A stretch of DNA of 32,000 bases from Candidatus Iainarchaeum sp. (lineage in GTDB: Archaea; Iainarchaeota; Iainarchaeia; Iainarchaeales; DTGL01), in contig JAVYME010000007.1 in the NCBI GenBank assembly GCA_038736825.1, forward strand, positions 1,349-33,348, read 5' to 3'. Both the position numbers and the translations under genes were made by a program. Positions 3-30,980 of the stretch are shown here, one piece after another. The notes under the pieces are model-generated. The model saw only the letters and a list, made by a program, of their open reading frames with translations. It had not been told where the DNA came from and made no database searches. How positions within the stretch are numbered: position 1 is the first letter of the stretch; each line of letters begins with the position of its first letter.

Positions 3-746
3 GTTTTAGAATATGAAAAAATAGAGGAATGCAAAAAACTCAGGACTTCAAGGTACAGGTACACCTTGTTCAACGAGCGCTCTATAGACAAGCTTGGCAC
101 TTTTTGGAGAAGCCTTGACGCCTGCGGAGCAAACTTTTTAAGAGCAAAATACGGAATGCTGCCAAAAACCACAACCTATTCCTCTGACTACCGGGTTGTA
201 GGGCTAATCAACACAGAACACGCAGTGTTTTACGATTTAGGGCAAGCCAAAGGCTTTGCAATGTTTGAAAAATCAAAGCCAAGGAATTCCATTATTGCAG
301 TCAATTCAAGCCAGGCAGTAGGACACGAGCTAGGGCACACTTTTGGCTTGGCAGAACAATACAGCAAAAAAGCCTTTTTGGAAAGCTACAAAAAATACCC
401 CTACATAAAAAACTTTTACCCTGGGCCATTACAAAAATACTTCAATCTGGATGCAGAAAAAGCAAGCTCGCTTTACCAAAAAGGCTACACTCGCGGAACA
501 GAAGACTTTCCAGAATGCCCTTACTCCAAGGACGAGCTTTACACTAAATGCCCTGACTGGCCTGAATGGTTAAGCTTTGGAGCAGTTGACTGTTATGGAA
601 GAAAAATGCCGAAAACCGGCACACTCAAAAAAAGAAGCTTTATGGGGCCTTCAAGCATTATTGATGTGGGGGTTGCAGGAATAGAAACAACAGATCACGG
701 ATTTGACTGTTTTGAACAGCCAGCAATCCAAAAACAATGGGGTTAA
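3..746 (+). CDS. Zinc metallopeptidase, C-terminal part (gene starts upstream of the window)
   Basis: The frame is open from the window edge, with no in-frame stop between nt 3 and the TTG at 66. HELGHTFGLAEQY fits the HExxHxxGxx(acidic)xY zinc-site pattern of M6/InhA-type peptidases (HExxHxxGxPDxY). The C-terminal FDCFEQPAIQKQW matches FDCFEKEQFKKQW at the end of the ORF 1489..4437. Confidence 0.75.
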   Translation, partial: VLEYEKIEECKKLRTSRYRYTLFNERSIDKLGTFWRSLDACGANFLRAKYGMLPKTTTYSSDYRVVGLINTEHAVFYDLGQAKGFAMFEKSKPRNSIIAVNSSQAVGHELGHTFGLAEQYSKKAFLESYKKYPYIKNFYPGPLQKYFNLDAEKASSLYQKGYTRGTEDFPECPYSKDELYTKCPDWPEWLSFGAVDCYGRKMPKTGTLKKRSFMGPSSIIDVGVAGIETTDHGFDCFEQPAIQKQWG

Positions 747-750
747 AAAA

Positions 751-1482
751 ATGAAAAAGGCATTGCTTTTTGCAATTTTCCTGCTTTTCTTTGCACAGGT
801 TTTTTCCCTTGAGAATGCTGCTTCAAGTGATTCAGAGGAGGAAACCCTTGTTTTTGAGGCAAGAATTGCCATAGAGGAAAACGCAGTCGTGGTTGACAGC
901 GTGCAAGTGGTTTATGGCACTCCAATGGAAATCGATTCTGATGCAAACTATGTTGCCAAAATTCTTGACGAACAACTTTCAGTTTTATACCAGGCAGGAT
1001 TTGATTTTGAAGAATTCACAGTCACTTTGCCTCCAGAGGCTTCAGAAGAAGAAATAGAAAAACATTATGCTGGGCCTCCTTCAGCGGTTGAAAAAGTATT
1101 GTTTTTGCCTTATTTTGAGGAAGCGGCTGTGCTTGCAATAGGTTCCAGGAAAGGCGAACTGATTGCCTTGATTGATTTGCAGGAAAGGGTTTGCAATAAG
1201 GATGGCAAGTGCGGTGAAAACGAAAACTTTTTATCCTGTCCTGCGGATTGCCCGCTGGAAAAAAAAGACAATTATTGTTTGCCGGAAAAAGACAATGTTT
1301 GCGATTCCGATTGTGTTGAAGGCTTGGATTCTGATTGTGAAAAGGGCGGCAAAGAAGGCGTGAAAGCGGAAACGTTTTCCATTGAACAAACCTATTTTAT
1401 TGCAGTGGTGGTTTTAGCCTTTGTTTTGATTTTTGCATACAATGTTTTAAGGAAAAAAAGAAAGCAAAAAGGCAAAGCTTGA
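751..1482 (+). CDS. Signal-peptide protein with juxtamembrane 8-Cys module and C-terminal TM anchor (paralog of 4441..5145)
   Basis: ATG at 751 gives MKKALLFAIFLLFFAQVFS, a signal peptide. The Cys module is C-x5-C-x6-FLSCPADCPLEKKDNYC...CDSDCVEGLDSDC. The C-terminal hydrophobic helix YFIAVVVLAFVLIFAY is followed by RKKRKQK. The gene starts 4 nt after the upstream stop and is colinear with 4441..5145. Confidence 0.8.
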   Translation: MKKALLFAIFLLFFAQVFSLENAASSDSEEETLVFEARIAIEENAVVVDSVQVVYGTPMEIDSDANYVAKILDEQLSVLYQAGFDFEEFTVTLPPEASEEEIEKHYAGPPSAVEKVLFLPYFEEAAVLAIGSRKGELIALIDLQERVCNKDGKCGENENFLSCPADCPLEKKDNYCLPEKDNVCDSDCVEGLDSDCEKGGKEGVKAETFSIEQTYFIAVVVLAFVLIFAYNVLRKKRKQKGKA

Positions 1483-1488
1483 GGTTGA

Positions 1489-4437
1489 ATGCAATGCTTG
1501 GTTTTTTTTTGCGCAAAGGCTTTTTTTTGTTTTTTTTCTTTTGCTTTTTTTCCTGTAATCGCTCAATCTACTGTTGATTCTGGGGTTGTTGTTGCGCAAA
1601 GGTTTGGTTTGGACAGGGTTTTGCTGGAATGGGATGTGAATGCGATAACTCCCACTATGTGTGATCCTTTGTTTGTTGTGGGAGAGAGTGGTTTTTTTTG
1701 TGATGCAACCCAGTTTTCTATAATGCTTTCCAAGCGTCTTGTGTTGGAGCCTGACTTGAATGAGTTTGAGGTTTTGCTGTTGGCGGATAATTATGGGGGT
1801 TCTTTTAGGGAGGCTTTTTCTGGTTTTTATTCTGGGCGTCTTTTTTTGGGTGGCAGGGTTGATGTTTCCAAGTGGTTTTTTTTGAATAGTCCTGGGCGGG
1901 CTGGCTTGTACAGGGTTTTTTTGGATTCTAATGAGGGTGGTTTTTTTGTTAGGTTTGTTTTGGTGGAGGACTTGAATGGCTTGGATTCCAGGTTGGGCAC
2001 TCGTTTTTCTGAGAATCCGTTTTTTGGTTTGGCTTTTGATGCTTTTCCTTTTGATGGTGAAAGGGATTTTGGTTTGACTGGAAAGGGTGAGGTTTTTTAT
2101 TTGAATGATGTTTCACGGCTTCCTGTTGCGGTGAATGATTCTTCTGGGCTTGAGGTTGAGTCTGGAAAGACTTTTGCGGATACTGCTTCTGGTTTGGTTT
2201 TGGGTTTTGATTTGAAGTCAAGGGTTTTGAGGTTTAATCGTTCTGTTCCGTCTGTTGTTTCTTTGCATTTGCGTGAGAGTGGTTCTTTTACTGGTTTTTA
2301 TTCTTTGGCTGATTTGTCTGGCAGGGTTTTTTCTCGCGATTTTTTTGGGGATAGGGTTTTTTTGTTGGATTGGAGTGGTTCTGATGGGGTTTTTAGGGAT
2401 GTTTTTTTGGATAGGGTTGCTTCTGGTTTGAGGTGTGATGGTTGGAGTGAGAGTTTGCCTTCTGGCAAGCTGGTTGTTTCTCCCGGGGTTTCTGATTCTT
2501 TGTCTTTTCATTCTGTTGTTTTTTTGCCTGAAGGGGTTGTTTTGAGGTGGTTGTGTGTTTCTGGTGATGCGTTTGTGGAGTTGCGTTCTTTTGCTGGTGG
2601 TGTTAGTGGTTTTTATTCTGGTGTGAGGAATGGTTTTGTTTCTTCTGGGCGTTTGTTGTCTGTTTCTTTGCCGGCTGGTTCTTTTGAGGGGGTTTTTTCT
2701 TTGAGGGCTGTTTTGGGGGAGGTTGTTGCTGGAAGAGTGAGGGTTTTGTCTGAACCGGAAAAGGGTTTGTTTGCTTTGTTTTGGAATGAAAAGGCTTTCA
2801 GGGAACTGGTGGTAACAGGAGAAAAGCCGGAAGATGAACCGGTTGCAGAGGAAATAAGCAGTTATGCTGCACTTCCAGCAGGTGGAGCGAATGCACCCTA
2901 TGTTTTCAAGGTTTACTTGCAACCATTGTCTCCAACCGGCAGGGAGGACATTTATTGTTTTGCTTCAGGAATAGATCCAAACAATTCACCCTTAAATTTT
3001 ATTTTCACTTGGAGGCTTAACGGAATTGAAGTTCAAAAATACCAAATTAATGGCGCTTTGAGTGGCGCTGAACGCACTCAATCAAGCATGCTTTCCAAGC
3101 AAAAACTGGCTGAAAGAAGAGCGAGCACTGGAACAGTGATTGAATGCGAGGTTATAGTCAACAATGGCAGAACCCAAAGCCATCCGGTTACAGCCAAAGC
3201 AACCATTGGACAGGAAAACCCAGTCGGGCAAAGCTCTGGCGCTCTCCCTGATTCTGATGGTGATGGAATTCCAGATGCAAGCGATAGATGCCCTTATGAA
3301 AAAGGCACTTTAGCCAACCAAGGCTGCCCTTCAAGCACTCCATCACTGCCAGCTTCTCCGTTGACGCCATCACAGTTGACACCATCACAAAACACTGTTT
3401 CCTTTTATTTCCTTCCAATTGACTGGGAAGGCTCTCAGCAATCCTTTGAAACCGAAGTGAACGGGCAACTCGCTTTTTTGCTGGAAAAATCCGGCATTAA
3501 AAGCGATCCAGCCTGTTCAGGGTTTTCCTTTCAAAAAACAATCCTTCCAATGACTCTAGCAGAACAATGCGGTTTGAGCTTGAAAACCACAATCAATTAC
3601 AATGACTTTTTGTCAAAAGTTTATAGTTGCCTTCAAAGACAGGGAATTCCCTTAAACAATAAAAAAACCATTTTTGCAGGTTTAAGCAATTCAACCTCCA
3701 GCAGCTTAGTTGTTTGCTCTTACACGGCTTCAGGCTCTCAGTGCTTTAACTGGTTTGGTTTTCACGATCGCCTTGGAGGTTCAGGGTTTGGCACAAGCGT
3801 TTTGATTGCACTGGCTTCAACAGTTGGAAGCCCAAAACTTGGCTTTGACCTGTTCTCTCACGAAGTAGGGCACAGCCTGGGCTTTTGCGAGCAATACTCT
3901 TATTCTAAAAATGTGGCTCAACAGAGTGCCAGGCAGTTCAGCAGTTTTGGTGGTTGCACAAACAAGTATCCCGGGAGTGGGGAAACACTGTATGCCTTGC
4001 TTTTTTCCCAGTCCTATGAAAAATGCCCTGGTGAAACAATTCCAACCAATTGCCCTGAATTTGTGCAAATAAGCTATGTGAGTGCATACGATTTGGGTTT
4101 AACCACCACTCCAACCGAGGACAGCACTAAAGCCAAGGTTTTGTCATCAGAGTTAAGGGAAAAAATAAGATTGCATTGCTCTAAATTTGCTTCCCCAGAC
4201 AAATGCATTTCAGATTATGTTTCAAGGCAGAACTGGTCTCTGCCTGATGTGGACTGCCTTGGCAGAAGGTTTTTTGTCGCCGGAAAGGAAAACAGGGACA
4301 TTATGGGGGTAGTGTCCAAAATCCAACAGGAAATGGCAATGGTTTTTACAAGAGCAGGCTATTCTTCAAACCCAGAGCGTTCCTTTGACTGTTTTGAAAA
4401 AGAACAATTCAAAAAACAGTGGTGTTTGGGGGGCTGA
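1489..4437 (+). CDS. Large secreted multidomain zinc metallopeptidase (M6-like HExxH domain at the C-terminus)
   Basis: 982-codon ORF with GAGG 5 nt upstream of the ATG and a hydrophobic N-terminus. It contains a TSP3-like Ca-binding repeat (DSDGDGIPDASDRCP), a P/S/T linker, an HEVGHSLGFCEQY zinc site, and a C-terminal tail shared with ORF 3..746. The first ~420 codons have an aberrant G+T-rich composition (see findings). Confidence 0.8.
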   Translation: MQCLVFFCAKAFFCFFSFAFFPVIAQSTVDSGVVVAQRFGLDRVLLEWDVNAITPTMCDPLFVVGESGFFCDATQFSIMLSKRLVLEPDLNEFEVLLLADNYGGSFREAFSGFYSGRLFLGGRVDVSKWFFLNSPGRAGLYRVFLDSNEGGFFVRFVLVEDLNGLDSRLGTRFSENPFFGLAFDAFPFDGERDFGLTGKGEVFYLNDVSRLPVAVNDSSGLEVESGKTFADTASGLVLGFDLKSRVLRFNRSVPSVVSLHLRESGSFTGFYSLADLSGRVFSRDFFGDRVFLLDWSGSDGVFRDVFLDRVASGLRCDGWSESLPSGKLVVSPGVSDSLSFHSVVFLPEGVVLRWLCVSGDAFVELRSFAGGVSGFYSGVRNGFVSSGRLLSVSLPAGSFEGVFSLRAVLGEVVAGRVRVLSEPEKGLFALFWNEKAFRELVVTGEKPEDEPVAEEISSYAALPAGGANAPYVFKVYLQPLSPTGREDIYCFASGIDPNNSPLNFIFTWRLNGIEVQKYQINGALSGAERTQSSMLSKQKLAERRASTGTVIECEVIVNNGRTQSHPVTAKATIGQENPVGQSSGALPDSDGDGIPDASDRCPYEKGTLANQGCPSSTPSLPASPLTPSQLTPSQNTVSFYFLPIDWEGSQQSFETEVNGQLAFLLEKSGIKSDPACSGFSFQKTILPMTLAEQCGLSLKTTINYNDFLSKVYSCLQRQGIPLNNKKTIFAGLSNSTSSSLVVCSYTASGSQCFNWFGFHDRLGGSGFGTSVLIALASTVGSPKLGFDLFSHEVGHSLGFCEQYSYSKNVAQQSARQFSSFGGCTNKYPGSGETLYALLFSQSYEKCPGETIPTNCPEFVQISYVSAYDLGLTTTPTEDSTKAKVLSSELREKIRLHCSKFASPDKCISDYVSRQNWSLPDVDCLGRRFFVAGKENRDIMGVVSKIQQEMAMVFTRAGYSSNPERSFDCFEKEQFKKQWCLGG

Positions 4438-4440
4438 AAA

Positions 4441-5145
4441 ATGCGCAAAACGTTTTTGGTTTTTGCTTTTTTTCTTTTTTCAGTCCAAGTTTTTGCAGTA
4501 AATCCGGAAAAATGCCTTTTTTTCAGGGTTTTTTGGGAGAAAGGCGATTACCAGATAGACAGCTTGCGAATTGTAATGGATTTTCCGCTGGAAGTAGACC
4601 CTGAAGGCGATTACTTGGTAAAATTGCTTGATTCAAAGGGCACTGCATTATACCAGCACAAAACAAAAAAGGCCAGCACTGTTTTAGAGCAATCCATCGA
4701 ACCATTGAACGGTGAAACCACTGACCAAAACATTGTAATAGATTTTGACACAATTGCTGGAACCCAGAGAGGGCAAATGTTTTTCCTCTTGCCTTATACT
4801 GAAAACGCGAAAAAAATTTCCTTTGAGCATGGCACTGCGGTTTTGGCTGAAGCGGATTTAAGCGTTTTATGCCAAGCAAATGGAAAGTGTGAAAGCCAGG
4901 AAAACTTTTTGTCTTGCCCGCAAGACTGTCCCTTGAGCGAAAAGGACAATTATTGTTATGCTTTCACAGACGGAACCTGTGATCCGGACTGCATTGAAGG
5001 CTTTGATTCTGATTGCACTAAAAGCAATGGAGTGAAAAAAGAACAGTTTTCCCTTGAACAAGTTTATTTTATTGGAGTGGTGGTTTTAGCCTTTGCTTTA
5101 ATGGTTTCATACAATGTTTTAAGGAAAAGAACCGGAAAAAAATAA
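4441..5145 (+). CDS. Signal-peptide protein with 8-Cys module and C-terminal TM anchor (paralog of 751..1482)
   Basis: MRKTFLVFAFFLFSVQVFA is a signal peptide. The Cys module is C-x5-C-x6-FLSCPQDCPLSEKDNYC...CDPDCIEGFDSDC. The C-terminal helix YFIGVVVLAFALMVSY is followed by RKRTGKK. The gene starts 3 nt after the stop of 1489..4437. Confidence 0.8.
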   Translation: MRKTFLVFAFFLFSVQVFAVNPEKCLFFRVFWEKGDYQIDSLRIVMDFPLEVDPEGDYLVKLLDSKGTALYQHKTKKASTVLEQSIEPLNGETTDQNIVIDFDTIAGTQRGQMFFLLPYTENAKKISFEHGTAVLAEADLSVLCQANGKCESQENFLSCPQDCPLSEKDNYCYAFTDGTCDPDCIEGFDSDCTKSNGVKKEQFSLEQVYFIGVVVLAFALMVSYNVLRKRTGKK

Positions 5146-5955
5146 CTAGAGTGAAATTTCTTCCAGTGCTTTCAATACGTGCTCTTCCCTTACAAGCCTG
5201 CTTGCATCTTGCTCTGCCTTCAAGCCAGCTAGTTTTAAGAGGTTGACTGCAAGGCGAGCGTCGCCTTTAAGGGAAGCCTTTTCTGCAATCAATTCAAGCG
5301 CTCTTTTTTCCCAAGTGTCCTCATAAAAAGCGTATTTTTTTCTTTCCCTTACAATGCCCTGGATTTCAAGGCGAGAATAAGGCCTGAAAAGGATTTCTTT
5401 CGGCAAAAGCCTGGATTTTATGCGTTCATCGAGTTCTGCAAGGAAACCGCTGTTGTTTGAGATAAGGATTGCTGATTTGGTTTTGAATCTTTCCAGGAAC
5501 GCGTACAGAAAGCCTTGCTCTTTTGCCCGGTCTATTTCGTCAAAGCAAGCGGCAACCGGCGTGCTGCCGGTTCTTTCAATTATTTTTTCCAGCAAGAGTG
5601 ATTCTTCCGCGCTTGCTGGCGCCAAAATCTTTAATTGCGAGCACATTTCCCGGAATATTTCTTTTCCAGTGGGGTGAGTCCAGCAGTTCACGTAAAAAAC
5701 AAAGGCATTGCTTTCCTCTGCGAATTCTTCCAGCACTTTTTTGACTGCATGGGTTTTTCCTATTCCGGCTTTTCCTGTTATTAACAGGTTGCGCCCGCTT
5801 TTTCCTTCAAGCAAGGGCGAAATTGAGGCTGCAATTTCCCTGGTTTCGTTTTCCCTGAACGGCATTATTGGCGGAATGAAGTCTGGTTCAAGCGATTCAG
5901 GGTTCGAGAAAAGGGATTCTTCTTCTCCAAGCGGGGAAAGCTTTTCAGGGTTCAT
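5146..5955 (-). CDS. cdc6: Orc1/Cdc6-family AAA+ ATPase, short form without C-terminal winged-helix domain
   Basis: Walker A is LLITGKAGIGKTH and Walker B is ACFDEIDRA. Sensor and lid motifs are ILISNN, SRL, FRPY and GDARLAVNLL. The ATG at 5955 forms an ATGA overlap with the stop of the upstream MBL gene. The longer ORF start at 5991 would overlap that gene by 40 nt. Confidence 0.75.
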   Translation of the reverse strand: MNPEKLSPLGEEESLFSNPESLEPDFIPPIMPFRENETREIAASISPLLEGKSGRNLLITGKAGIGKTHAVKKVLEEFAEESNAFVFYVNCWTHPTGKEIFREMCSQLKILAPASAEESLLLEKIIERTGSTPVAACFDEIDRAKEQGFLYAFLERFKTKSAILISNNSGFLAELDERIKSRLLPKEILFRPYSRLEIQGIVRERKKYAFYEDTWEKRALELIAEKASLKGDARLAVNLLKLAGLKAEQDASRLVREEHVLKALEEISL

Positions 5956-6587
5956 TGGTTTTTCTCCAGCAATACTGCTTTTTTTCCGCACAATTTTGCG
6001 AAAAGCTTTGCGTTTTCAATTGTTCCGTTTCCAGCATCTCCACCGTAATGCATTGGTATTGCGATTTCTGGATTGATTGCTTGAACTGCTTTGACTGCGT
6101 CCTCTGCGCTCATAGTGTAAGTGCCATCCACTGGCAGGAATGCAACATCCACTTTTCCCTTCAAGGAATTCATTTCTGGAATGAAATCAGTGTCGCCTGC
6201 AATGTAAAAGCGCACTTTTCCTGTTTCGAAAACAAAGCCTGTTCCGATTCCTTTTGGATGGAATGGTTTTGAAACATTGTAAGAGGGCACTGCAAAAATT
6301 TTGACTTCTTTTGCTTCAAAAGACTGTCCTGCTTTTAAGGGAACGGTTTTCCATTTTGAAAGCTTTTGCGCTGCAAGTGAATTGCAAACTATTATTGTTT
6401 CAGGCGAGGCAATTTTTGCAATGTCTTCTGGCGAGCAATGGTCAAAGTGTTCATGGGTTACCAGCACAATGGATGCCTTTTCGTTTTCTTTTATGTTGAA
6501 TGGGTCTGTGTAAATCGTGTTATTGCCTGTTTTTATTTTGAAGCAGGCATGGCAAAGCCATTCTATTATAGTGCCCTTGAATTCCAT
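5952..6587 (-). CDS. Metallo-beta-lactamase-fold hydrolase (UPF0173-like)
   Basis: Motifs seen are HACFKI, VLVTHEHFDHC (HxHxDH) and AGDT...PMHYG. Its length of about 210 aa is typical of the archaeal UPF0173 metal-dependent hydrolases. Confidence 0.8.
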   Translation of the reverse strand: MEFKGTIIEWLCHACFKIKTGNNTIYTDPFNIKENEKASIVLVTHEHFDHCSPEDIAKIASPETIIVCNSLAAQKLSKWKTVPLKAGQSFEAKEVKIFAVPSYNVSKPFHPKGIGTGFVFETGKVRFYIAGDTDFIPEMNSLKGKVDVAFLPVDGTYTMSAEDAVKAVQAINPEIAIPMHYGGDAGNGTIENAKLFAKLCGKKAVLLEKNQ

Positions 6588-6693: not shown

Positions 6694-8061
6694 TTAAGCA
6701 GATTCTTTTTTCTTTGCTATTGATTTGTGGAGTTTTTCAAGTTTTTCCAGGGCTTTCTCGCGCTCTTCCTTTTTTTTATCCGCCTCTTTCTCTTCAGGTT
6801 TTTTTTCCTCTTCTTTTTTTGGTTCTTTTGCTGGTTCCATTGATTGTGGTGCTGGGGCTTCTTCTTTTTTCAATTCCTCTTTTTTTGTTTTTTTTGCCTT
6901 TTTTTTGCCTTTTTTGCCCTCTTCTTTGAGTTTCTTTTCTTTTTCCAATCCAATTATTTCATCCACTGCTTTCAAGAACAAGCCAGCTGTCCAAGCAAAA
7001 GGGCTTTCGCTTTTCAACAAAAAAGAATCAATCGGCCTTTTATGCTTGTCAAAGATTTCATTGGTAACACAATAATTGTTTATTTGCCATGCAAGCCTGT
7101 CCAATTCCATTAGTGCTTGTTCTTTTAAGCCGATTTTGTTGAGAGCAATTGCGTTCATGCAACCAATCCAAGGCCAAGAGAACCCGTTATGGTAATAATA
7201 GGCTTTTGTTGGCAGTATTAATAGTGAGGGCACTACCTTCCAAAAAGGATAGGGCGGATAATTGGTTTTCATGGGCACTTGGTTTAAGCCGTGTTTTTCA
7301 ATGAATTCCTCTATTTTTAGCGCTCTATCGCTTGTGGCAATGCCCCATGCGACTGCAAGCACGTTTCCATCGCTTGAAAAATAATTGTGTTTTGTTAATC
7401 CAATCCAGTCAGTGTAATAATAGTTTTCCCAAAACTTTATGTTTAGGGCAAGCCTTGTTGTTTCAGCCCTTTTCTCGTATTCTGTTGAAATCATTTTCAC
7501 TCCAAGCCAGTCTGCGAGAAAGGCGAATTCTTTGAGTGCATAATAATAACAGCAGTTGGAGTAAAGCACTTTGCCGTGCTTTAATATGGTGTCAGCCCAG
7601 TTCGAGAAAAAGCCCTCTTCTATTAAGCCGTCCTTGTCGCGATCCATTTTGCAAAGCCATTCCATTGAAAGCGAAACCTTTTTGAAATTGGATTCTATGA
7701 AGACTTTGTCATCGCTTTTCCTTGCATAGTCTGCAAGTGCGATTACAAAGAGTGCATTTGAGTCCACTGGTGGTGGAAAAAAAGCAAAGGGCTTGTATTT
7801 TGGCTTTAATTTTAGGGAAATTATTGCTGGAAGAAGCCCTTTTTTGTCCTGCAAGTCCAAAAACAATTGCAGGTTGTTTTTTGATTGCTTGAAATCGCCT
7901 ATAGCGTTTGCCCCAAGAGAGGCAAAAAACGAATCCCTTGCCCAGTATTGCTGGAAATGCCCTCTTCCAGCCAAAATGCCGGATTCAGTATAGCATTCCC
8001 GCAAGTCTCTTTTAGCGATTTCTATTGCGTCAGCAATGGCTTTCTCCAAGCAAAAAACCAT
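6694..8061 (-). CDS. Amylo-alpha-1,6-glucosidase / glycogen-debranching-type (alpha/alpha)6 glycoside hydrolase with K/E-rich C-terminal tail
   Basis: GRGHFQQYWARDSFFASLGA and the downstream W/Y-rich pattern are typical of the archaeal GDE_C family. The last ~84 aa are a low-complexity K/E/P tail. Confidence 0.65.
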   Translation of the reverse strand: MVFCLEKAIADAIEIAKRDLRECYTESGILAGRGHFQQYWARDSFFASLGANAIGDFKQSKNNLQLFLDLQDKKGLLPAIISLKLKPKYKPFAFFPPPVDSNALFVIALADYARKSDDKVFIESNFKKVSLSMEWLCKMDRDKDGLIEEGFFSNWADTILKHGKVLYSNCCYYYALKEFAFLADWLGVKMISTEYEKRAETTRLALNIKFWENYYYTDWIGLTKHNYFSSDGNVLAVAWGIATSDRALKIEEFIEKHGLNQVPMKTNYPPYPFWKVVPSLLILPTKAYYYHNGFSWPWIGCMNAIALNKIGLKEQALMELDRLAWQINNYCVTNEIFDKHKRPIDSFLLKSESPFAWTAGLFLKAVDEIIGLEKEKKLKEEGKKGKKKAKKTKKEELKKEEAPAPQSMEPAKEPKKEEEKKPEEKEADKKKEEREKALEKLEKLHKSIAKKKESA

Positions 8062-8929: not shown

Positions 8930-10017
8930 GCTTGTTTTTGGGTTTTGTTTTCCACAAACTCTTCCACAAGCTTTTTCGCTTGATAGTCAGAAAACTGTTT
9001 TGGAGGGTGCTTGAAAAAATAAGCGCTTGGGCCAACAATTGCTCCAGCTAGTTTCCTGTCAAGCGCTATTTTAGCGCACCTTATTGCGTCAATCATTACG
9101 CCGGCAGAATTCGGTGAATCCTCCACTTCAAGCCGTATGTCCAAGTGCATTGGCACGTTTCCAAACTTTCTGCCCTCCATTCTTATAAAACCAATTTTTT
9201 TGTCTTTCAAAAAGGGAATGTAATCGCTTGGACCAATGTGAATGTCTTCAGCGGATAATTCTTTTTCAAGCTGGCTTTGAACTGCACTGGTTTTAGAGAT
9301 TTTTTTGGATTTAAGCCTTGCTCTGCTGTCAATCATGTTCAAAAAATCAGTGTTGCCGCCCACATTCAACTGGTAAGTGTGCTCTAATTGAACACCCCTG
9401 TCTTCAAAGAGTTTTGCCAGAACGCGGTGGATTATTGTGGAACCTATTTGGGATTTTATGTCATCGCCTAAAACCGGCAAGCCAGCGTTTTCAAACAATT
9501 TGGCGTTTTTTTCATCTGATGCCACAAAAACAGGGATTGCGTTTATGAATGCAACTCTTGCTTCAAGGCAAGCGTCAACATATGCTTTAGTGGCTTTTTC
9601 AGAGCCAACAGGCAAATAGTTTATCATTATTTCTGCACCGCTTTCCCTTATCTCTTTCACTAAATCGCATTCTTTTTGCTTTTCATCCACTAAAAACATT
9701 TCTCTAGTGGTTTCAGTTATGCCGTCCAATATCGGGCCTTTTTTCACTATGACTCCTGTTTTGTTGATGTTTGAAAACTTGATTGTGCAATTGGGTGGAG
9801 AGAAAGCGGCTTCACTCAAGTCTTTTCCCACTTTGCGCTTGTCAATGTCAAAAGCCACTACTGGTTTTATGTCACTGATTTTGTATCCGCCTAAAACGTT
9901 GTGCATTATTCCAGGCACTTTTGGGGATTTTGGGCCAACATCTTTGTAGAATTCTAGTCCTTGCAATAGCGAGCTCGCGCAATTGCCTACTCCGATAATG
10001 CCGATTTTTATGGGCAT
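8926..10017 (-). CDS. ino1: myo-Inositol-1-phosphate synthase
   Basis: IKIGIIGVGNCASSLLQGLEFY closely resembles the N-terminal Rossmann motif of bacterial/archaeal Ino1 (VGNCASSLVQG). GGNTDFLN is also present. The ATG at 10017 (MPIKIG) is preferred over 10062. TTAA is shared between the convergent stops at 8926-8929. Confidence 0.8.
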   Translation of the reverse strand: MPIKIGIIGVGNCASSLLQGLEFYKDVGPKSPKVPGIMHNVLGGYKISDIKPVVAFDIDKRKVGKDLSEAAFSPPNCTIKFSNINKTGVIVKKGPILDGITETTREMFLVDEKQKECDLVKEIRESGAEIMINYLPVGSEKATKAYVDACLEARVAFINAIPVFVASDEKNAKLFENAGLPVLGDDIKSQIGSTIIHRVLAKLFEDRGVQLEHTYQLNVGGNTDFLNMIDSRARLKSKKISKTSAVQSQLEKELSAEDIHIGPSDYIPFLKDKKIGFIRMEGRKFGNVPMHLDIRLEVEDSPNSAGVMIDAIRCAKIALDRKLAGAIVGPSAYFFKHPPKQFSDYQAKKLVEEFVENKTQKQA

Positions 10018-13462: not shown

Positions 13463-13632
13463 GCCGAGATGGCGGAGTGGCCCAACGCGCCAGCCTTGAG
13501 CCCAGCCTTTTTCTTTTAAAAAGAAAAAGCCTAGGTTTGACAAAAAGAAAGACTTGATGGCAAAAGAAAATTGTGCGGCAAGCAAGCTGGTATGCCTTTT
13601 GGCATGCGGGGGTTCGAATCCCTCTCTCGGCG
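13463..13632 (+). tRNA. tRNA-Ser(UGA) with 84-nt intron (13501..13584) at position 37/38
   Basis: The acceptor stem is GCCGAGA/TCTCGGC with discriminator G. The anticodon stem is CCAGC/GCTGG with loop C-T-TGA-G|A. The long variable arm is ATGCC-TTTT-GGCAT and the T-arm is GGGGG-TTCGAAT-CCCTC. No CCA is encoded. A T9 run follows immediately. ATATTAAAA lies ~20-25 nt upstream. Confidence 0.9.
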
Positions 13633-21348: not shown

Positions 21349-21568
21349 GCCGAGATGGCGGAGTGGCCCAACGCGCCAGCTTGGAGCCTGCCCTTTCTTT
21401 TCTTTTAACAAAAGAAAAGAAAGTGTAAGTTGCCCAAAGAAAAGAAAAACGGTTTTGGGTTGCGGAAAAGAAAGAAAACTTTTGGTTTCCAAACAAAGCC
21501 AGGTGTTTTTGCAGCCAATTAGCTGGTATGCCTTACGGCATGCGGGGGTTCGAATCCCTCTCTCGGCG
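21349..21568 (+). tRNA. tRNA-Ser(GGA) with 134-nt intron (21387..21520) at position 37/38
   Basis: The exons are nearly identical to the tRNA at 13463. The anticodon loop is T-T-GGA-G|A and the variable arm is ATGCC-TTAC-GGCAT. There is a perfect hBHBh' motif: CCAGC TTGG [AG|C] CTGC ... GCAG CCAA [TT|A] GCTGG. Confidence 0.9.
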
Positions 21569-21572
21569 CTGT

Positions 21573-21794
21573 TCATTTTTCTTGGATTAACTGCCCTGCT
21601 TTTTCCGTGTCAGCGTAAAACTCCAAATAACCGCAGTCAAGGCACAAGTGGGCGGTCACCATTGGCAGGTTTAACGCAAACACCGGAGTCTTTTTTTTTG
21701 AAGAAAAATATTTTGGCGGCATTACAGTCGGGCTCACATAACCAGAATCAATCCTTGTTGAACCGCACTTAGGGCATTTCACCATGGCCATCAA
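21573..21794 (-). CDS. Small zinc-ribbon protein
   Basis: It has two CxxC pairs (CPKCG ... CLDCG) in 73 aa. It lies just downstream of the Cys-repeat gene on the same strand. Confidence 0.55.
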   Translation of the reverse strand: MMAMVKCPKCGSTRIDSGYVSPTVMPPKYFSSKKKTPVFALNLPMVTAHLCLDCGYLEFYADTEKAGQLIQEK

Positions 21795-23317: not shown

Positions 23318-23422
23318 ATGAAAAAGTTTTTTTTCTTATTTTTTGCCCTTGTTTTTGACAGCAATGGTTTTAGCCCTTCCACTCTTTTCAATGATGAAAA
23401 AAAGAGAGTGTTAAAAAAATGA
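23318..23422 (+). CDS. Doubtful 34-codon mini-ORF with signal-peptide-like N-terminus
   Basis: Hand translation gives MKKFFFLFFALVFDSNGFSPSTLFNDEKKRVLKK. Its TGA overlaps the ATG of the next gene (ATGA at 23419-23422). It is too short for the ORF track. Confidence 0.25.
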   Translation: MKKFFFLFFALVFDSNGFSPSTLFNDEKKRVLKK

Positions 23423-24963
23423 AAAAGGAAATCTTTCAAAAAATTTTTGCAATTTTGGTTTTTTTCCTGTTTTTTGCCAGTGTCAAGGCAGACACCTTCA
23501 ATATCCCGTTAGCTCGCTTCGGCTTAGTGCAAAGCATTGGAGAAAAAAAGGCAATTTTTGAAAACCAGATTAAGCCGATTGTTGAAACCTTTAGACTTAA
23601 TGCAGACATTTCAAGCCTTGAAGATTGCGCCAACAAGTCCACCACCATTCAAGGGCAGGGGCAATGCCAAAACACCATTGAAATAGCCTTTCAGGCTGCA
23701 TTGCCCTACAATGACATGTATGCCCAGACAAAGTATTCCCTTTTAAGGGACGGAATTGAATTCCAGCCCGCTTCAAGCATTCCGCCTTCAAAAATTTCAC
23801 TTGGAGACACAATCCGCATTGAACCCCAAATTGTAACCCAAGAAATTTCACACCCCATCCAGGACTGGACAGTACAAGGCGCATCCACAGACACTCCACC
23901 AATAGAAATCCTTTCAAGCAGGGAATTCAACACGCTTGCCGAAATGTTAACCCTAAGACAGCGCGAAAGATATCCTGCCTCAGGGGAATTAATGGATGCG
24001 CTTAGAGTTGAAAAATTCAAAACCGAGGTTGTTCCCTGGACTGGCGGCAACAGTTATGTTGGATTCCAAGGCAAAACCTATCATGTTGTCGAATTGGCTG
24101 GAGGCAAAAAAGCAGGAGTGCTAATTGCTTGCGCTGAATCCATATCAGCAACCACTTACAGTGGCACTTGCAATTCCGACCCTTTAAGCGACAGTGTTGA
24201 ATGCCATATAACCAAAATGCCTGAAAACAGAAAAGCTGAAATTGTCATTAATCCCTTTTTTAACTGCTTTATTCACTTTGACAGGATTTTCACTGGAAGC
24301 ATAGCGCTTCAAGCAGACTGGTTTGGCCAAACCTTTGGCAATGTTCCAAAAAGCCCATTGTCTTTTCAGGTTCTGCCAACCGGCAGAGAAAAACCCCCTA
24401 TAGCAGAATTCGAGTGCAATATTGACAATTGCACGCCGGATTCAGAGCAACCAAAATGCCTTTACTGTGATGCTTCCAAGTCAAGCGATGAAGACGGCAG
24501 AATAGAATCCTATTTTTGGACAATCGCTGGAAGCTACACTACCGCCATTGGAGTTAAATCCAAATTCTACCCTCAATCCCTTCCCAAAAGCACAATAAGC
24601 ATAACCCTAAAAGCAACAGACAACCAAGGCTTTTACAGCGAGAAAACAAAAACCTTCAGTGTAAGTGAAGGAACACTAAAAGAAACAGGCATGACAGATA
24701 AACTGTCTTTTATTGCAGAATACAATCCCTCCACAAAAAAAGCAGAACTCACTCTCTCCAATTGCCCACCCACTGCCATGCAAGCATTCCTTGACATTGA
24801 CTTGCTTGGCTTTGACGCCAAACCAGTGCTTTCAATTTTAGAAAAACAACCAATTGCCTGCGAAAAAACAACAGAGGTTGGCCCGATAACCGCGAAAGGC
24901 GTTTACCAAGCAACAGCCAAAATAAACAGCCAAACAATTCAAGCAATATTTTCAGTTCCATAA
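23419..24963 (+). CDS. Secreted protein of unknown function (possible PKD/Ig-like segment)
   Basis: MKKEIFQKIFAILVFFLFFASVKA is a signal peptide. The segment CDASKSSDEDGRIESYFWTIAG...ITLKATDNQG resembles PKD-type beta-sandwich motifs. There is no C-terminal anchor. Confidence 0.7.
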   Translation: MKKEIFQKIFAILVFFLFFASVKADTFNIPLARFGLVQSIGEKKAIFENQIKPIVETFRLNADISSLEDCANKSTTIQGQGQCQNTIEIAFQAALPYNDMYAQTKYSLLRDGIEFQPASSIPPSKISLGDTIRIEPQIVTQEISHPIQDWTVQGASTDTPPIEILSSREFNTLAEMLTLRQRERYPASGELMDALRVEKFKTEVVPWTGGNSYVGFQGKTYHVVELAGGKKAGVLIACAESISATTYSGTCNSDPLSDSVECHITKMPENRKAEIVINPFFNCFIHFDRIFTGSIALQADWFGQTFGNVPKSPLSFQVLPTGREKPPIAEFECNIDNCTPDSEQPKCLYCDASKSSDEDGRIESYFWTIAGSYTTAIGVKSKFYPQSLPKSTISITLKATDNQGFYSEKTKTFSVSEGTLKETGMTDKLSFIAEYNPSTKKAELTLSNCPPTAMQAFLDIDLLGFDAKPVLSILEKQPIACEKTTEVGPITAKGVYQATAKINSQTIQAIFSVP

Positions 24964-24979
24964 AAATAAAAGCCAGAAC

Positions 24980-25675
24980 TCAGTTTTTGCCAGCATTAAA
25001 CTTTACCCTAATATGCGAGCCATCACAAAACGGCTTGTTCTTTGAAGCACCACACCTGCACAAAGTAACACGATTCCTTTCCTCATAATATGTGCCATCT
25101 GAAGATTTTATTGGAACAAAGCCCTTAACCCAGATTGGACCAGAGCATTTTGCCTGCGGGTCCTCCACCAACCCAATAGAAGGCTTGAATTTTGGCTCTA
25201 TTGCCCTACCGGTTTTTTTATGCCATACCACTAGCCTTCCAGAAGGGCAATTGCAAGCGGTTTCAATTGCCAGTTTCCTTTTTTTAACATTGCCTGACAG
25301 TTCAACCTGCTTCCAAGTGCCACCAGCCCTATGGCAAAACCTTGCAACAGCACACAATTTTGGAGCATCAGTCAAATCAATGCCAGGACCAAAAAACCTT
25401 TGCGCTTGCGCCAAATACCGTTTCTTCAAGGCAGTTTCCATTCCATTAAACCCAATTGTTTGGTGCGAGCCATCACAAAAAGGCTTGTTCTTTGAAGCAC
25501 CGCACCTGCAAAGCGCAAAAGAATCCCTTTTCTCAAACTTTTCACCAGCAATCCATTTTTCAGGCTCATTATCCCTGCCAATTCCAATGATTTCCTTCCT
25601 TAAAGGCAAGCCGCCAAAAACAAGGTATGGACCGTTCTCTGCAATCACAATTTCAGCCTTTTTCCCGCCAGCCAT
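24980..25675 (-). CDS. CDGSH-type iron-sulfur protein with two CDGSH motifs and a central Cys-rich (divergent 4Fe-4S-like) segment
   Basis: CRCGASKNKPFCDGSH occurs twice. The central segment is CAVARFCHRAGG...CNCPSGRL. Confidence 0.85.
   Translation of the reverse strand: MAGGKKAEIVIAENGPYLVFGGLPLRKEIIGIGRDNEPEKWIAGEKFEKRDSFALCRCGASKNKPFCDGSHQTIGFNGMETALKKRYLAQAQRFFGPGIDLTDAPKLCAVARFCHRAGGTWKQVELSGNVKKRKLAIETACNCPSGRLVVWHKKTGRAIEPKFKPSIGLVEDPQAKCSGPIWVKGFVPIKSSDGTYYEERNRVTLCRCGASKNKPFCDGSHIRVKFNAGKN
25014..25060. repeat. 47-nt intragenic direct repeat, copy 1 (CDGSH motif)
   Basis: TGCGAGCCATCACAAAACGGCTTGTTCTTTGAAGCACCACACCTGCA differs at 2 positions from the copy at 25464..25510. The offset is 450 nt. 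Confidence 0.9.
25464..25510. repeat. 47-nt intragenic direct repeat, copy 2 (CDGSH motif)
   Basis: This is the copy matching 25014..25060. Confidence 0.9.
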
Positions 25676-27446: not shown

Positions 27447-29663
27447 TTAAGGACTCGAGGTCTTGTCTTCGTCGCAATGCCCTGGACCAATATAGCCCTC
27501 GTTATAGGAAGCCAACAGCGAGGCAGTGCTAGTGAATTGCTTTCTCAATGAATCGTTTGCCTTCAAAGCCCCAATTTGTGCCGGCGTATATGTGCTGAAC
27601 CAAGTGTCTGCTTTGGCTATTGCCTCACTTACGCTGGCAGGCGCGTCAGCCCCATTCAAAATGTTAAGCCTTGCAGCCATGAACTGGTGAGCCAATTGAT
27701 AGTAGACATTGCCCTTTACTGGAGTCCAAAACACTTTATACCAGGTTTGACCGCTCAAATAGAACGGAGTGCTTGCCCCAGTTGGTGCCAGCAAAGCCCA
27801 AGTGTCATCGTATGGTGCTTTTCCGAACTCTGAATGGGTTTTCCAATAGCCTTGAGTCAAAGTGCAGCCCTGTATGCATTCCACGTTCACCAAAACAGAC
27901 CAGCTGTCTTCGCCCTTGGTTTCAGTGTCATTTGTAATGAATTCTGCAGTGTTGTCTATTTTGTGTTCGCCGCACCCTTCAGGGTCAGAGTATGGACCGA
28001 TTGTCCAAGTGTATTTAAAGGTTTTTGGAGCTTGTCCAGCGCAAACCGAGCCCAAAGTTCCCTTTAATGTGTCTGTGACTTCAATGCATTCATCTGTTTC
28101 TGTTGTCGGGCTGCCAAAGGTTATGTTTGCAGTTCCACTGTAATCTGTTGTTCCGCTTGGAGTGGGAGAGCCATTGAATGGATGGGAATAGTTTTGTTGT
28201 GTTGCTGTGGCAGTGTTTGTTCTAGTAGTGCTGTCTGGAAGTGTTGCGCTATAAGTGCAGGTGAGTGTTTGCCCTGCTGGCAGACTGTATGGGAATGTTT
28301 CCGGGCAATTTACTGTTGCTGCTCCAACTCCACTAATTGCGTCTGTTACGCTATTGATTGTTGCCGGAATTGTGGCTGGATTGCTTACTGTTATGTTGCC
28401 TGAAACGCTCCAACCAGAATCTGTATGGGTTTTGTCCACTTTCACTTCATAGTTTAGAATGTAAGTTTCCCCTGGTGCAAGAGTCAACTCGGTTTTGTCA
28501 GCTTTCTTGTCAATAGTCCAATTGTATTTTCTTGTGAACCCTGTACTGGCAGTTTTTGCAATTGAAAGCTTGTAGCAATCAACTGTAACGCTTGCACTGT
28601 CCTGTTGTCTTGTTTGAGTTATTGTTGCAGTGTTGTTGATTGTTTTGCTTCCATGATTGTTGGAATAGGTTATTCCACTGCAATCAAAGGTTTTGTTGTA
28701 AGTTACACTGCCAGAATTGTTAAACAGCCATGGGCCGCCTTGCGTGTCAGTAACTTCTATTGAAGAATTTGAAGGCCGTGGGCTTACCCCGCTAAAATTT
28801 ATTTCTTTGGAGGCACTGTTTCCGCCAACATCTCCAGTAGTGGTGACTGTGGCAGTGTTTGTTCTAGTAGTGCTGTCTGGAAGTGTTGCACTGTAAGTGC
28901 AGGTGAGTGTTTGCCCTGCTGGCAGACTGTATGGGAATGTTACTGGGCAATTGACTGTTGCTGCTCCAAATCCACTAATTTCGTCTGTTACATTGGTTAT
29001 TTGCGCTGAAGCGTATTGTGCTGGATTTGTGATTGTTATTTGTCCAATAACAGAATAAGTTGTGGATCCAAGGGTTTTTGTCACTGTAATGGTGTACTGT
29101 GATTGTCCAGAATCACCGTCAAACAAAACCCAAGCATCAGGTGTAACACTCTTGTCAATAGTCCAAACATAGTTTTGCTCAATGTGCGGATAAACATTCT
29201 TTGAAACCGAAAGGTTTACTTGTTCATAGTTGACAGAAACAGCTTTGTTGCCATTTGAGGGACTGTCAAAACCGTCGTTCAGTGTGCCATTCCAAATGAC
29301 TGTTGCAGTCCATGCCCCTCCAACTAGGTCTGCAGTTGATGCAACATAATCAGCACTTCCAACAAAGCTTGTTTCTGTTGGATTTGGATAGTTGTTTGGT
29401 CCAAAGGTGTGCTCTGTGCCGTCTGGCAATTTTAATGTTAGTGTTCGGTTGGTTATGTCGCAACCATCGCTTGATGATGGGTTTCCAGCGCTAACTGTAA
29501 AGGTTATTGTTTGTCCTGGTTGTGCTGAGGCTGTGCTTCTTGCAATGTTTACAACGCTGTTGTCTGCGTTACAGCCTGGCGGTGATGCCGGGTCTGCGGC
29601 CATAACGCTTGGTGTTGCCAGCAACAAGGCAATTGCTGCCAGCAATAATATTTTTTTGTTCAT
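27447..29663 (-). CDS. Large secreted protein with DUF11-like repeated beta-sandwich modules and a C-terminal TQGYWK-motif domain
   Basis: MNKKILLLAAIALLLATPSVMA is a signal peptide. Repeated modules follow the pattern W-T-I-D-K ... G-x-I-T-[IV]-[TS]-N-P ... I-x-x-V-T-D ... ATVNCP.TFPYSLPAGQTLTCTYSATLP. The C-terminal domain carries GCTLTQGYWKTH. GGAGG lies 8 nt upstream of the ATG. Confidence 0.85.
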   Translation of the reverse strand: MNKKILLLAAIALLLATPSVMAADPASPPGCNADNSVVNIARSTASAQPGQTITFTVSAGNPSSSDGCDITNRTLTLKLPDGTEHTFGPNNYPNPTETSFVGSADYVASTADLVGGAWTATVIWNGTLNDGFDSPSNGNKAVSVNYEQVNLSVSKNVYPHIEQNYVWTIDKSVTPDAWVLFDGDSGQSQYTITVTKTLGSTTYSVIGQITITNPAQYASAQITNVTDEISGFGAATVNCPVTFPYSLPAGQTLTCTYSATLPDSTTRTNTATVTTTGDVGGNSASKEINFSGVSPRPSNSSIEVTDTQGGPWLFNNSGSVTYNKTFDCSGITYSNNHGSKTINNTATITQTRQQDSASVTVDCYKLSIAKTASTGFTRKYNWTIDKKADKTELTLAPGETYILNYEVKVDKTHTDSGWSVSGNITVSNPATIPATINSVTDAISGVGAATVNCPETFPYSLPAGQTLTCTYSATLPDSTTRTNTATATQQNYSHPFNGSPTPSGTTDYSGTANITFGSPTTETDECIEVTDTLKGTLGSVCAGQAPKTFKYTWTIGPYSDPEGCGEHKIDNTAEFITNDTETKGEDSWSVLVNVECIQGCTLTQGYWKTHSEFGKAPYDDTWALLAPTGASTPFYLSGQTWYKVFWTPVKGNVYYQLAHQFMAARLNILNGADAPASVSEAIAKADTWFSTYTPAQIGALKANDSLRKQFTSTASLLASYNEGYIGPGHCDEDKTSSP
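28205..28349. repeat. 145-nt intragenic direct repeat, copy 1
   Basis: There are 7 mismatches in 145 nt against 28847..28991. The offset is 642 nt (214 codons, in frame). Confidence 0.9.
28847..28991. repeat. 145-nt intragenic direct repeat, copy 2
   Basis: This is the copy matching 28205..28349. Confidence 0.9.
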
Positions 29664-29671
29664 TTTTTTTT

Positions 29672-29676
29672 CCTCC
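29672..29676 (-). promoter_or_regulatory. Shine-Dalgarno GGAGG for 27447..29663
   Basis: The - strand reads AAAGGAGGAAAAAAAAATG. The same 19-nt leader precedes rubrerythrin (30541-30559). Confidence 0.55.
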
Positions 29677-29757
29677 TTTGTTTTTTTTTGATTAATATAT
29701 TGTGTTTCTTAAATCACTGAAAAAAGTAATTTAAAGTGATGTATTTCTGGGTTGTAA

Positions 29758-29848
29758 TTTGTTTGTTTGTTGTTTGTTTATTTTTTGTTTTTTTTGTTGT
29801 TTTTTTGTTTATTTTTTGCATTTTTTGTTTTATTTTTTTTCTTTTTTG
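29758..29848. repeat. Low-complexity T(n)G tract (A(n)C on the - strand)
   Basis: The + strand reads tttgtttgtttgttgtttgtttattttttgtttttttttgttgtttttttgtttattttttgcattttttgttttattttttttcttttttg. It lies about 95-185 nt upstream of the 738-aa gene start. Confidence 0.8.
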
Positions 29849-30018
29849 AAGTAATTGGCAGTTTAGTTGGTGTTTTCAGTTTGTTTTTTTTAGTGCGGTT
29901 TTTTCGCTGTATTCTTTTCTTTCTGTGAATTCTTGGGTTTTTCCTATGTTCCATTGCTGTACTGGCCTGTAGTAGCCGCATACTCTGGAGTATACTTCTG
30001 TTTTGTTTTGGCATTTTT

Positions 30019-30543: not shown

Positions 30544-30563
30544 TTTTTTTTCCTCCTTTTTTT

Positions 30564-30941: not shown

Positions 30942-30980
30942 AAGCAAGCCTTATTAAAAATCATTATTAATAAATAAGCG

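Follow-up and report, generated by a model that had tools for sequence, protein, structure and literature searches.

The 5′ part of a putative metalloprotease gene in a Diapherotrites archaeon carries an island of 1,294 nt in which the coding strand consists of 70–84% G+T. The gene lies in the window, by which we mean the whole 32,000-nt stretch of DNA that was analyzed (contig JAVYME010000007.1 of assembly GCA_038736825.1, Candidatus Iainarchaeum sp.); all positions are window coordinates unless one of four homologous loci, L001 to L004, is named. Gene B, as we call it (1489..4437, + strand; MEM0360105.1, QXK06_02060), belongs to a Candidatus Diapherotrites metagenome-assembled genome (MAG) and encodes a 982-aa secreted or surface multi-domain putative Zn metalloprotease. 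The skew is confirmed and lies far beyond chance. In the reading that we favor, to which we assign a probability of about 0.6, the island is an element, or at least one copy of an element, of the GRINS type (‘genetic repeat of intense nucleotide skew’; Nivina et al., PNAS 2021; PMC8256042): a module of ~1.3 kb that was gradually recoded towards G+T on its sense strand while selection kept the protein fold.

Extent, composition and codon choice of the island

A maximum-likelihood change-point search placed the borders of the island at nt 1496 and nt 2789 (codon 433). The island thus runs on the + strand from the signal peptide to the motif FALFWNEK and covers the first 433 codons of the open reading frame (ORF) 1489..4437. 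The original prediction had given its extent as 1495–2745; the start agrees, but the 3′ edge lies ~45 nt further right. In 200-nt windows, the G+T content of 1501–2800 was 0.70–0.83 against a window mean of 0.534 (standard deviation 0.087), and from 1501 to ~2800 the + strand displayed a GC skew of +0.38 to +0.46 and an AT skew of −0.36 to −0.57. The GC content of the island (0.42) equals that of its flanks, the window being ~42% GC throughout. The skew sets in within 7 nt of the start codon, the upstream gene ending only 6 nt before gene B, and G+T climbs in the 5′ to 3′ direction from 0.70 to 0.82 (p = 0.005), with one sign throughout.

The bias is strongest at synonymous sites. G+T at codon positions 1, 2 and 3 is 0.77, 0.61 and 0.91 in the first 420 codons, with A and C reduced to 4.3% and 4.8% of third positions; the corresponding values for the same ORF beyond the island are 0.55, 0.45 and 0.47, and the 25 other window genes range from 0.13 to 0.64 at position 3. 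Synonymous choice in the island is near absolute: TTT occurs 54 times and TTC never, AAG 9 times and AAA never, AAT 12 times and AAC never, and TTG accounts for 45 of 53 Leu codons, GTT for 43 of 52 Val codons and TCT for 38 of 50 Ser codons. These figures agree with the codon choice described in the original prediction, and recounts reproduced its local tallies: nt 2341–2400 hold 7 A and 1 C, nt 2581–2640 hold 5 A and 4 C, and all 33 codons read from 2221 end in G or T. The line that it had offered as typical, 9001–9060, is indeed of ordinary composition, but contains 32 rather than 31 G+T in 60 nt.

The skew also distorts the composition of the protein, again as had been proposed. Gly (11.0 vs 6.8%), Val (12.0 vs 5.8%) and Trp (1.4 vs 1.1%) are raised in the island, and Pro (3.2 vs 4.5%), Thr (2.1 vs 6.3%), His (0.5 vs 1.3%) and Gln (0.9 vs 3.2%) are lowered, as is Cys (1.6 vs 2.3%). 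A recurring aromatic motif that had been reported in three copies is present as [ST]GFYS at aa 111, 268 and 373; two of the copies, however, stand where the homologues have a conserved YYS and are thus partly a by-product of Y-to-F replacement in the recoding.

The stretch 1489–2789 contains 17 T runs of at least 6 nt, 13 of them of 7–9 nt, against 5.9 ± 2.2 expected from composition. Runs of this kind are prone to slippage, with frameshift switching or sequencing errors as possible outcomes. An Rfam search of the island returned no RNA family, and no canonical G-quadruplex motif was found in it.

The frame is kept open by selection

The region is coding, and its frame is specifically open, as the original prediction had argued. 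Frame 1 holds no stop in 433 codons, with 17 and 38 stops in frames 2 and 3; under a model of independent, identically distributed bases, 18.3 stops would be expected and P(open) is 8e-9, and every one of 20,000 shuffled sequences contained a stop. Compared with the remainder of the gene, the loss of A and C amounts to ~85% at position 3, ~50% at position 1 and 20–40% at position 2, a grading by codon position that bears the stamp of purifying selection on individual sites. Alignment to 12 family members showed that 74 of the 90 residues common to at least 80% of the others, and hence counted as family-conserved, are retained in the window protein; this value (82%) falls within the family range of 74–95%, and the losses are mostly Y to F, K to R, I to V and P to A or S. 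A confident AlphaFold (AF2) model of the recoded module reached a predicted local distance difference test score (pLDDT) of 82 and a predicted template-modeling score of 0.83.

A selection-free simulation was run on a homologue of normal composition from L001, applying random A to G/T and C to T/G changes at island-matching rates in 5,000 trials. Simulated hypermutation created ~7 new stops, and the frame remained open in at most 0.1% of trials. Together with the graded depletion, this result indicates that the compositional shift was gradual and took place under selection.

These data bear directly on the idea that the island was made in one step, either by a single burst of hypermutation (through a single-stranded-DNA deaminase toxin, or through alkylation of a resected or break-induced-replication intermediate) or as an error of sequencing or assembly. 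Such an origin would explain the strand-coordinated loss of A and C across ~1.3 kb and the repeat-like assembly break in the same MAG. It would not explain the grading by codon position, the retention of conserved residues or a frame that selection-free simulations almost always close. Loss of one channel in two-colour sequencing chemistry is expected to give A to T plus C to G, unlike the substitution spectrum of the island, and a Logan assembly of independent origin contains a similar island. We therefore regard this origin as very improbable indeed: artefact, pseudogene, one-off burst, none of these fits. Two specific candidates were rejected on the same grounds: a kataegis-like, one-off strand-coordinated mutation cluster, because of the graded depletion and the absence of the ~7 stops that simulations produce, and a two-colour sequencing failure, which is ruled out by the spectrum together with the codon-position grading. 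Rather than a burst on a single-stranded molecule, the data show long pressure filtered by purifying selection, and the deamination proposed in the original prediction is supported in part as to direction but not as to mode. An assembly join, which the original prediction also listed, is a possibility, and there are signs that this module is repeated in the same MAG.

Two ORFs on the − strand of the island, 2218..2922 (234 aa) and 1949..2221 (90 aa), were considered as genes and rejected. Both are low-complexity and rich in Q, N, P, K, R and T, and a Pfam scan that covered the longer one gave no match. Long antisense ORFs are expected here, since an A+C-rich strand has few T from which stop codons could form.

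The skew is derived in the window lineage

Homologous loci with DNA sequence were available from the MAG GCA_026396995.1 (L001 and L002) and from the Logan assembly ERR14788035 (L003 and L004). The module homologues at L001, L002 and L004 have a position-3 G+T of 0.40–0.64. At the protein level, the island has F+G+V+L+W+C = 0.53 and K+N+T+Q+P+H = 0.07, values matched by none of the ~15 family members found. Judged from these comparisons, the skew is derived in the window lineage, all sampled homologues being normal in composition.

Substitutions were polarized at sites where two L001 homologues of normal composition agree. At these sites, 51% of A, 57% of C, 28% of G and 13% of T had changed on the window lineage. 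The counts are C to T 36, A to G 34, A to T 19, G to T 14, C to G 10, G to A 10, T to G 10, G to C 6, T to C 6, A to C 5, C to A 5 and T to A 0, and they are rough, given homologues as distant as 49–53% aa identity and saturation at synonymous sites. One third of the flux consists of transversions towards T and G. The deamination-type changes named in the original prediction, A to G and C to T, do lead, but the frequency of A to T, G to T, C to G and T to G means that the spectrum is not one of pure transitions. G+T-ward replacements extend even to conserved sites, with K to R, I to V, Y to F, L to F and S to V.

A spectrum led by A to G and C to T, a G-rich non-template strand and an onset within 7 nt of the start codon are what transcription-linked damage would produce. 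Under this explanation, stable R-loops or a polymerase-borne deaminase would expose the non-template strand, downstream of the promoter of the gene itself, to C to U and A to hypoxanthine conversion, and the resulting G-richness would reinforce the R-loops. The common transversions A to T and G to T do not follow from it, and the skew rises with distance from the start and stops in mid-gene at a module border. Nor is there a deaminase gene in the window; the search for deaminase, reverse transcriptase (RT) and Rep genes suggested by the original prediction found none among the window genes. The polarity of further islands, described below, also speaks against it, and we consider transcription-linked damage unlikely.

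The island coincides with one conserved module

An exhaustive HMMER search identified ~15 proteins that share the N-terminal 400–470 residues of gene B; bearers of this module are P0011, P0013–18, P0021, P0024, P0027, P0031, P0033, P0118 and P0155. Similarity within the module always ends at residues 433–440 of gene B, at the motif WNEKAF (aa 435–440 for P0013, P0001, P0014 and others), so that the island corresponds to exactly one conserved module plus the signal peptide, at the N-terminus of a surface metalloprotease family that Diapherotrites carry in multiple copies. The module (1564–2808) is a conserved, beta-rich domain of ~420 residues found in Diapherotrites MAGs and metagenome assemblies. 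It matches no Pfam or NCBIfam family. A fold search with it gave no credible relative in the PDB, with template-modeling (TM) scores below 0.1 and matches to flavivirus E that are noise, and searches with back-translated patterns found no relatives in genome, metagenome and viral collections.

The window contains two tandem units: unit A, represented by the C-terminus of its protease paralogue only, followed by a 243-aa membrane protein, and unit B, gene B followed by a 234-aa membrane protein. Synteny pairs A and its partner (259 aa in this pairing) with P0014 and a 235-aa protein, and B and its 234-aa partner with P0012 and a 232-aa protein. The P0014 unit, in L004, adjoins the same Cdc6-like and metallo-beta-lactamase genes, and the P0012 unit lies in L003. 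Across gene B itself, aa 436–982 are closest to P0012 (41%), and aa 1–435 are closest to A-type modules (P0001, 50%; P0013, 39–46%) with no detectable match to the N-terminal part of P0012. The change of nearest relatives makes the 3′ border of the island a border of ancestry as well. By homology, gene B is shown to be a chimera, in which an A-type N-terminal module is joined to a B-type protease body. At the junction (2782..2805, + strand), codon usage flips within the module end WNEKAFRE, where the A-type module meets the B-type remainder. The remainder (2790..4437, + strand) is of normal composition, with a position-3 G+T of 0.47 and the B-type orthologue P0012 as best homologue (41% identity).

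A second copy of the module is suggested by a fragment in the same MAG. P0046 (MEM0360815.1, QXK06_05790) is a protein fragment of 61 aa, cut off where a 6,538-nt contig ends; its aa 20–61 are identical to aa 22–63 of gene B (42 residues), and its signal peptide, MKGFLKAIAFLPLLLCLAI, differs from that of gene B and is of ordinary composition. P0046 is probably the start of paralogue A, and the identity suggests that the module was duplicated or gene-converted in this MAG. An alignment with P0014 places the end of the module of paralogue A ~1,344 nt upstream of the window, while the contig, 33,348 nt long, has at most 1,348 nt beyond the window. With this geometry, most or all of that module is missing from the assembly, and the N-terminal module of A almost certainly lies outside both the window and the contig. 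On the simplest interpretation, near-identical copies of the module would be present in A and B and would have been collapsed in assembly, with the two contig ends as the repeat borders.

Two observations on searching and assembly belong here. A word-based protein search missed the P0046 fragment although it is 100% identical over 42 residues, and the same kind of search, aimed at finding the partial protein of paralogue A, returned only a 43% relative. In GCA_026396995.1, three of four module genes are cut by contig ends (P0001, P0024, P0066); breaks in assembly thus seem to be a general feature of this module family, caused by repeats or strain variation.

Sharp borders that coincide with a module, in a gene that is chimeric, might be expected if the module had been imported from a replicon with extreme strand bias, for instance a virus or plasmid that is single-stranded or replicates by rolling circle, and recombined at the domain borders. 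The GC content of 0.42, equal to the flanks, does not fit such an import, and neither do the nearest relatives, which are chromosomal Diapherotrites genes at a syntenic locus. A tblastn search gave no match in 50,697 phage and 72,556 plasmid records, and no relative was found in IMG/VR. To our knowledge, no replicon reaches a position-3 G+T of 0.91. Import of this kind is very unlikely, and the foreign origin raised in the original prediction is not supported.

Further skewed stretches point to a strand-level process

The original prediction held that the skew was confined to the island. A second, weaker stretch in the window contradicts this: at ~29,664–30,950 the + strand is again G+T-rich, with 0.63–0.84 per 100 nt. 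It comprises a spacer and the rubrerythrin and Fur genes, both on the − strand and therefore A+C-rich in their own sense, with a position-3 G+T of 0.13 and 0.20. The spacer includes a T/G-only part at 29740–29850, and its composition is T.65, G.13, C.05 and A.16. The A- and C-ending codons of rubrerythrin are adequately explained by ordinary selection on a gene with high expression, and we place no weight on this case; codon selection of this sort could account for the coding part of the stretch, but not for the spacer.

L003 carries a mirror image. At 1141–1800 of this locus, and more weakly to ~2340, the + strand is A+C-rich, with a GC skew of −0.37 and a TA skew of −0.44, and at 1201–1500 its G+T content falls to 0.18–0.32 per 100 nt. 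The island spans a gene 3′ end, a spacer and the first 130–270 codons of a 1256-aa gene. An adjacent paralogue of 564 aa has normal composition and 67% DNA identity over 456 nt, and the comparison between the two is asymmetric: G to A 112 vs A to G 68, T to C 53 vs C to T 35, and T to A 59 vs A to T 33. This asymmetry is the complement of that of the window island. Third positions read on the G+T-rich strand are similar throughout: T.60, G.31, C.05 and A.05 in the window island; T.55, G.32, C.09 and A.04 in rubrerythrin; and T.55–.65, G.25–.31, C.02–.07 and A.08 in the L003 island. That they agree whether the G+T-rich strand is sense or antisense points to a process at the level of the DNA strand rather than the codon. 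Relative to transcription, polarity is reversed in the second window island and in the L003 island, each of which also takes in spacer DNA; this is the further point against transcription-linked damage.

Selection on the RNA or its translation would favor the rarest codons of the genome, those ending in G or U, or an mRNA poor in A and C, in order to slow translation of a secreted domain, lower expression or escape an A/C-dependent nuclease. Codons ending in G or T are indeed the minority in all other window genes (0.13–0.64), the likely highly expressed rubrerythrin stands at the opposite extreme (0.13), and the island opens at the start codon. Against this, the amino acids are themselves shifted G+T-ward, even at conserved sites; the make-up of third positions is nearly equal in sense and antisense; and non-coding spacers are skewed too. 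Predicted mRNA folding in the island is only slightly weaker (−58 to −75 vs −73 to −89 kcal/mol per 300 nt), and the idea of an RNA structure proved weak. We judge selection on RNA or translation to be distinctly unlikely.

Milder skews were noted elsewhere. At 24451–25050, over the 3′ end of the gene 23419..24963 (+ strand) and the beginning of the gene that follows, the + strand is rich in A+C, with skews of −0.26 and −0.28; the 3′ end of the L003 orthologue of this gene is the most extreme part of the L003 island. A 145-nt direct repeat with 95% identity (28205–28349 and 28847–28991) lies within a 738-aa surface-protein gene on the − strand (27447..29663), and 28531–29130 around it is mildly skewed (GC 0.17, TA 0.26). 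The repeat may be a small internal conversion tract. The − strand gene 6694..8061 is glycoside-hydrolase-like (GDE_C/GH116-like) and ends in a ~90-residue C-terminal Lys/Glu repeat tail; because of the tail (6694–6900), T accounts for 57% of the + strand there, a case of plain low complexity rather than a skew island.

Proposed origin of the island

In the reading that we favor, the module would have been copied or gene-converted recently between the tandem paralogues A and B. A strand-asymmetric pressure would have acted on the + strand, with a net flow of A to G, C to T, A to T and G to T over many generations, while purifying selection preserved the fold during recoding. The pressure would be tied to module exchange, and its source may be a + strand that is repeatedly single-stranded in recombination or repair intermediates, or biased repair synthesis. 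The coincidence of the skew borders with the borders of the exchangeable module suggests that the pressure arises in such intermediates, and a pressure of this kind would also be in keeping with the slight increase of the skew as the sharp 3′ border is approached.

Several points weigh against this reading. The L003 skew covers a non-duplicated gene 3′ end and a spacer, so module exchange is not the whole story. Within the 32-kb window, blastn and a repeat search found no second copy of the island, and the off-window copy is deduced solely from a 61-aa fragment and the geometry of the contig. The substitution counts carry the roughness described above. Published GRINS often flip sign abruptly within a single element, while the island is uniform in sign. 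Finally, the GRINS paper makes no mention of archaea (PMC8256042), and the same name may hide another cause.

Domain organization of gene B and neighboring genes

Gene B begins with a Phe-rich signal peptide or N-terminal hydrophobic segment, MQCLVFFCAKAFFCFFSFAFFPVIA, encoded at 1489..1563 (+ strand) by DNA with T runs of 7–9 nt. Downstream of the module, a thrombospondin type-3 (TSP3)-like Ca-binding repeat (DSDGDGIPD; 3250..3297, + strand) matches Pfam PF02412 with E = 0.01, below the curated cut-off; homology searches gave many TSP3 matches, and PDB 5wtl was also matched. The C-terminal 350 residues carry an HExxGH motif that is invariant in 12 family members, here the zinc-binding HEVGH of the catalytic domain (3859..3873, + strand). 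An AF2 model of the protease part (pLDDT 81) matches the folds of adamalysin/snake-venom metalloproteinase, ADAM, fragilysin and M64 IgA protease, with a Foldseek probability of ~1.0, E = 5e-4 and a TM score of ~0.48, and Pfam gave sub-threshold matches only. The label ‘protease’ is thus reasonable but unproven.

Upstream, the C-terminus of paralogue A (3..746, + strand) is P0014-like with the motif HELGHTFG; it is 55% identical to aa 939–1186 of P0014 and 28% identical to the protease domain of gene B. The partner of unit A (751..1482, + strand) is a small membrane-anchored protein of 243 aa counted from ATG, 48% identical to the 235-aa protein of L004 and 43% identical to the 234-aa protein of the window. 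The latter, the small membrane-anchored partner of unit B (4441..5145, + strand), shares 62% identity with the 232-aa protein that follows P0012 in L003. Near the 3′ ends of the two partner genes, a 103-nt stretch (1357..1459, + strand) is 83% identical to 5029–5131; this could reflect a short tract of conversion, or no more than the conservation of a transmembrane anchor. A replication origin was considered at the Cdc6-like gene 5146..5991, but there is no intergenic space there, and cumulative skew tracks gene orientation.

Elsewhere in the window, 13463–13632 holds a tRNA gene with a ~100-nt intron (Rfam RF00005, 42.8 bits) that ARAGORN missed. Since it overlaps this tRNA, the listed ORF start at 13573 is probably wrong. 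Both tRNA halves recur at 21349–21578 with 82–85% identity, below the Rfam threshold.

Significance of an archaeal case

An archaeal case outside polyketide synthases (PKSs), in a reduced genome, would show that the GRINS process is no peculiarity of Streptomyces recombination, and it would shorten the list of candidate enzymes, since genes for replication and repair are few in DPANN genomes. A far bolder proposal is that Diapherotrites, a DPANN lineage, run an active, strand-specific process of recoding or hypermutation, directed at surface-protein modules and coupled to gene conversion, as a natural equivalent of activation-induced deaminase (AID) or of deaminase–polymerase mutators; it would push entire domains into a two-letter alphabet of G+T or A+C and thereby speed surface diversification. 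We hold this to be a long shot. Were it true, the responsible enzyme, and hence the cause of GRINS generally, would be identifiable in a small gene set. The family further offers a natural experiment in which the same fold occurs in normal and in two-letter composition among relatives, exposing the limits of nucleotide pressure on a protein. In practical terms, islands of this kind interrupt the assembly of metagenomes and bias searches for homologues.

Comparison with known systems

In animal mitochondrial DNA the heavy strand is G+T-rich, a pattern classically ascribed to deamination while single-stranded and rising with exposure. The island resembles it in that T > G >> A and C at third positions and in that C to T and A to G dominate. 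In mitochondria, however, the pattern is genome-wide and set by replication; here it forms a 1.3-kb chromosomal island in which A to T and G to T are frequent too.

Diversity-generating retroelements (DGRs) are common in DPANN archaea and, like the island, involve targeted, strand-specific base loss in a surface-protein gene. They randomize only adenines, however, need a nearby template repeat and an RT, and have variable regions that measure ~0.1 kb and lie 3′ in the target gene, whereas the island covers 1.3 kb at the 5′ end. A DGR was rejected here: C is lost as much as A, the window holds no repeat of the island, and no ORF in the window contains an RT domain.

The regions targeted by AID in somatic hypermutation and class switching, and engineered mutators that fuse a deaminase to T7 RNA polymerase, share with the island a tract of 1–2 kb running from the start of a transcription unit, a G-rich non-template strand and deamination-type changes. 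They differ in that polarity relative to transcription is inconsistent among the islands described here. We know of no natural AID-like or deaminase–polymerase system in prokaryotes.

The closest counterpart is GRINS, defined as a duplicated region of >500 bp that is >80% identical to another region and in which the mean absolute values of GC skew and TA skew both exceed 0.15 (PMC8256042). The coding stretches of these elements are ‘mostly encoded by G+T’ or ‘C+A’, with correlated skews that are strongest at third positions; positively skewed parts are enriched in amino acids with GGN, GTN, TGY and TGG codons, namely Gly, Val, Cys and Trp, and depleted in those with CCN, ACN, CAY and CAR codons, namely Pro, Thr, His and Gln (PMC8256042). 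Borders are abrupt, the elements are linked to conversion events between paralogous modules, and skewed regions present in one copy are reported too. Hosts span five bacterial phyla and a few eukaryotic PKSs (amoeba, choanoflagellate), the elements residing mainly in Streptomyces PKS genes and also in transposases. The authors describe the mechanism as unknown and put forward cytosine deamination in single-stranded DNA and tautomer-dependent error-prone synthesis as ideas (PMC8256042). A single description of these elements, from 2021, is on record; within the library searched, the later literature found cites GRINS in the context of PKSs and nonribosomal peptide synthetases only.

Measured in the same way, with 150-nt windows at a step of 30, the island of 1,294 bp is delimited as 1291–2820, with a mean GC skew of 0.45 and a mean TA skew of 0.51. 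The two skews correlate within the island (r = 0.60) and are strongest at third positions, and the amino-acid shifts run in the published direction, with Gly, Val and Trp up, Pro, Thr, His and Gln down and Cys as the sole exception. Both systems comprise skewed stretches of 0.5–1.4 kb with abrupt limits inside the coding sequence, functional in GRINS and probably so here, of modular, paralogous proteins. The present case differs in its host, a DPANN archaeon of ~42% GC rather than a high-GC organism, in its setting, a family of surface metalloproteases, and in its strength, with skews about three times the defining threshold. Strict membership hinges on a second copy with at least 80% identity, and on this basis we file the island as GRINS-like, an archaeal, non-PKS addition to the elements described so far.

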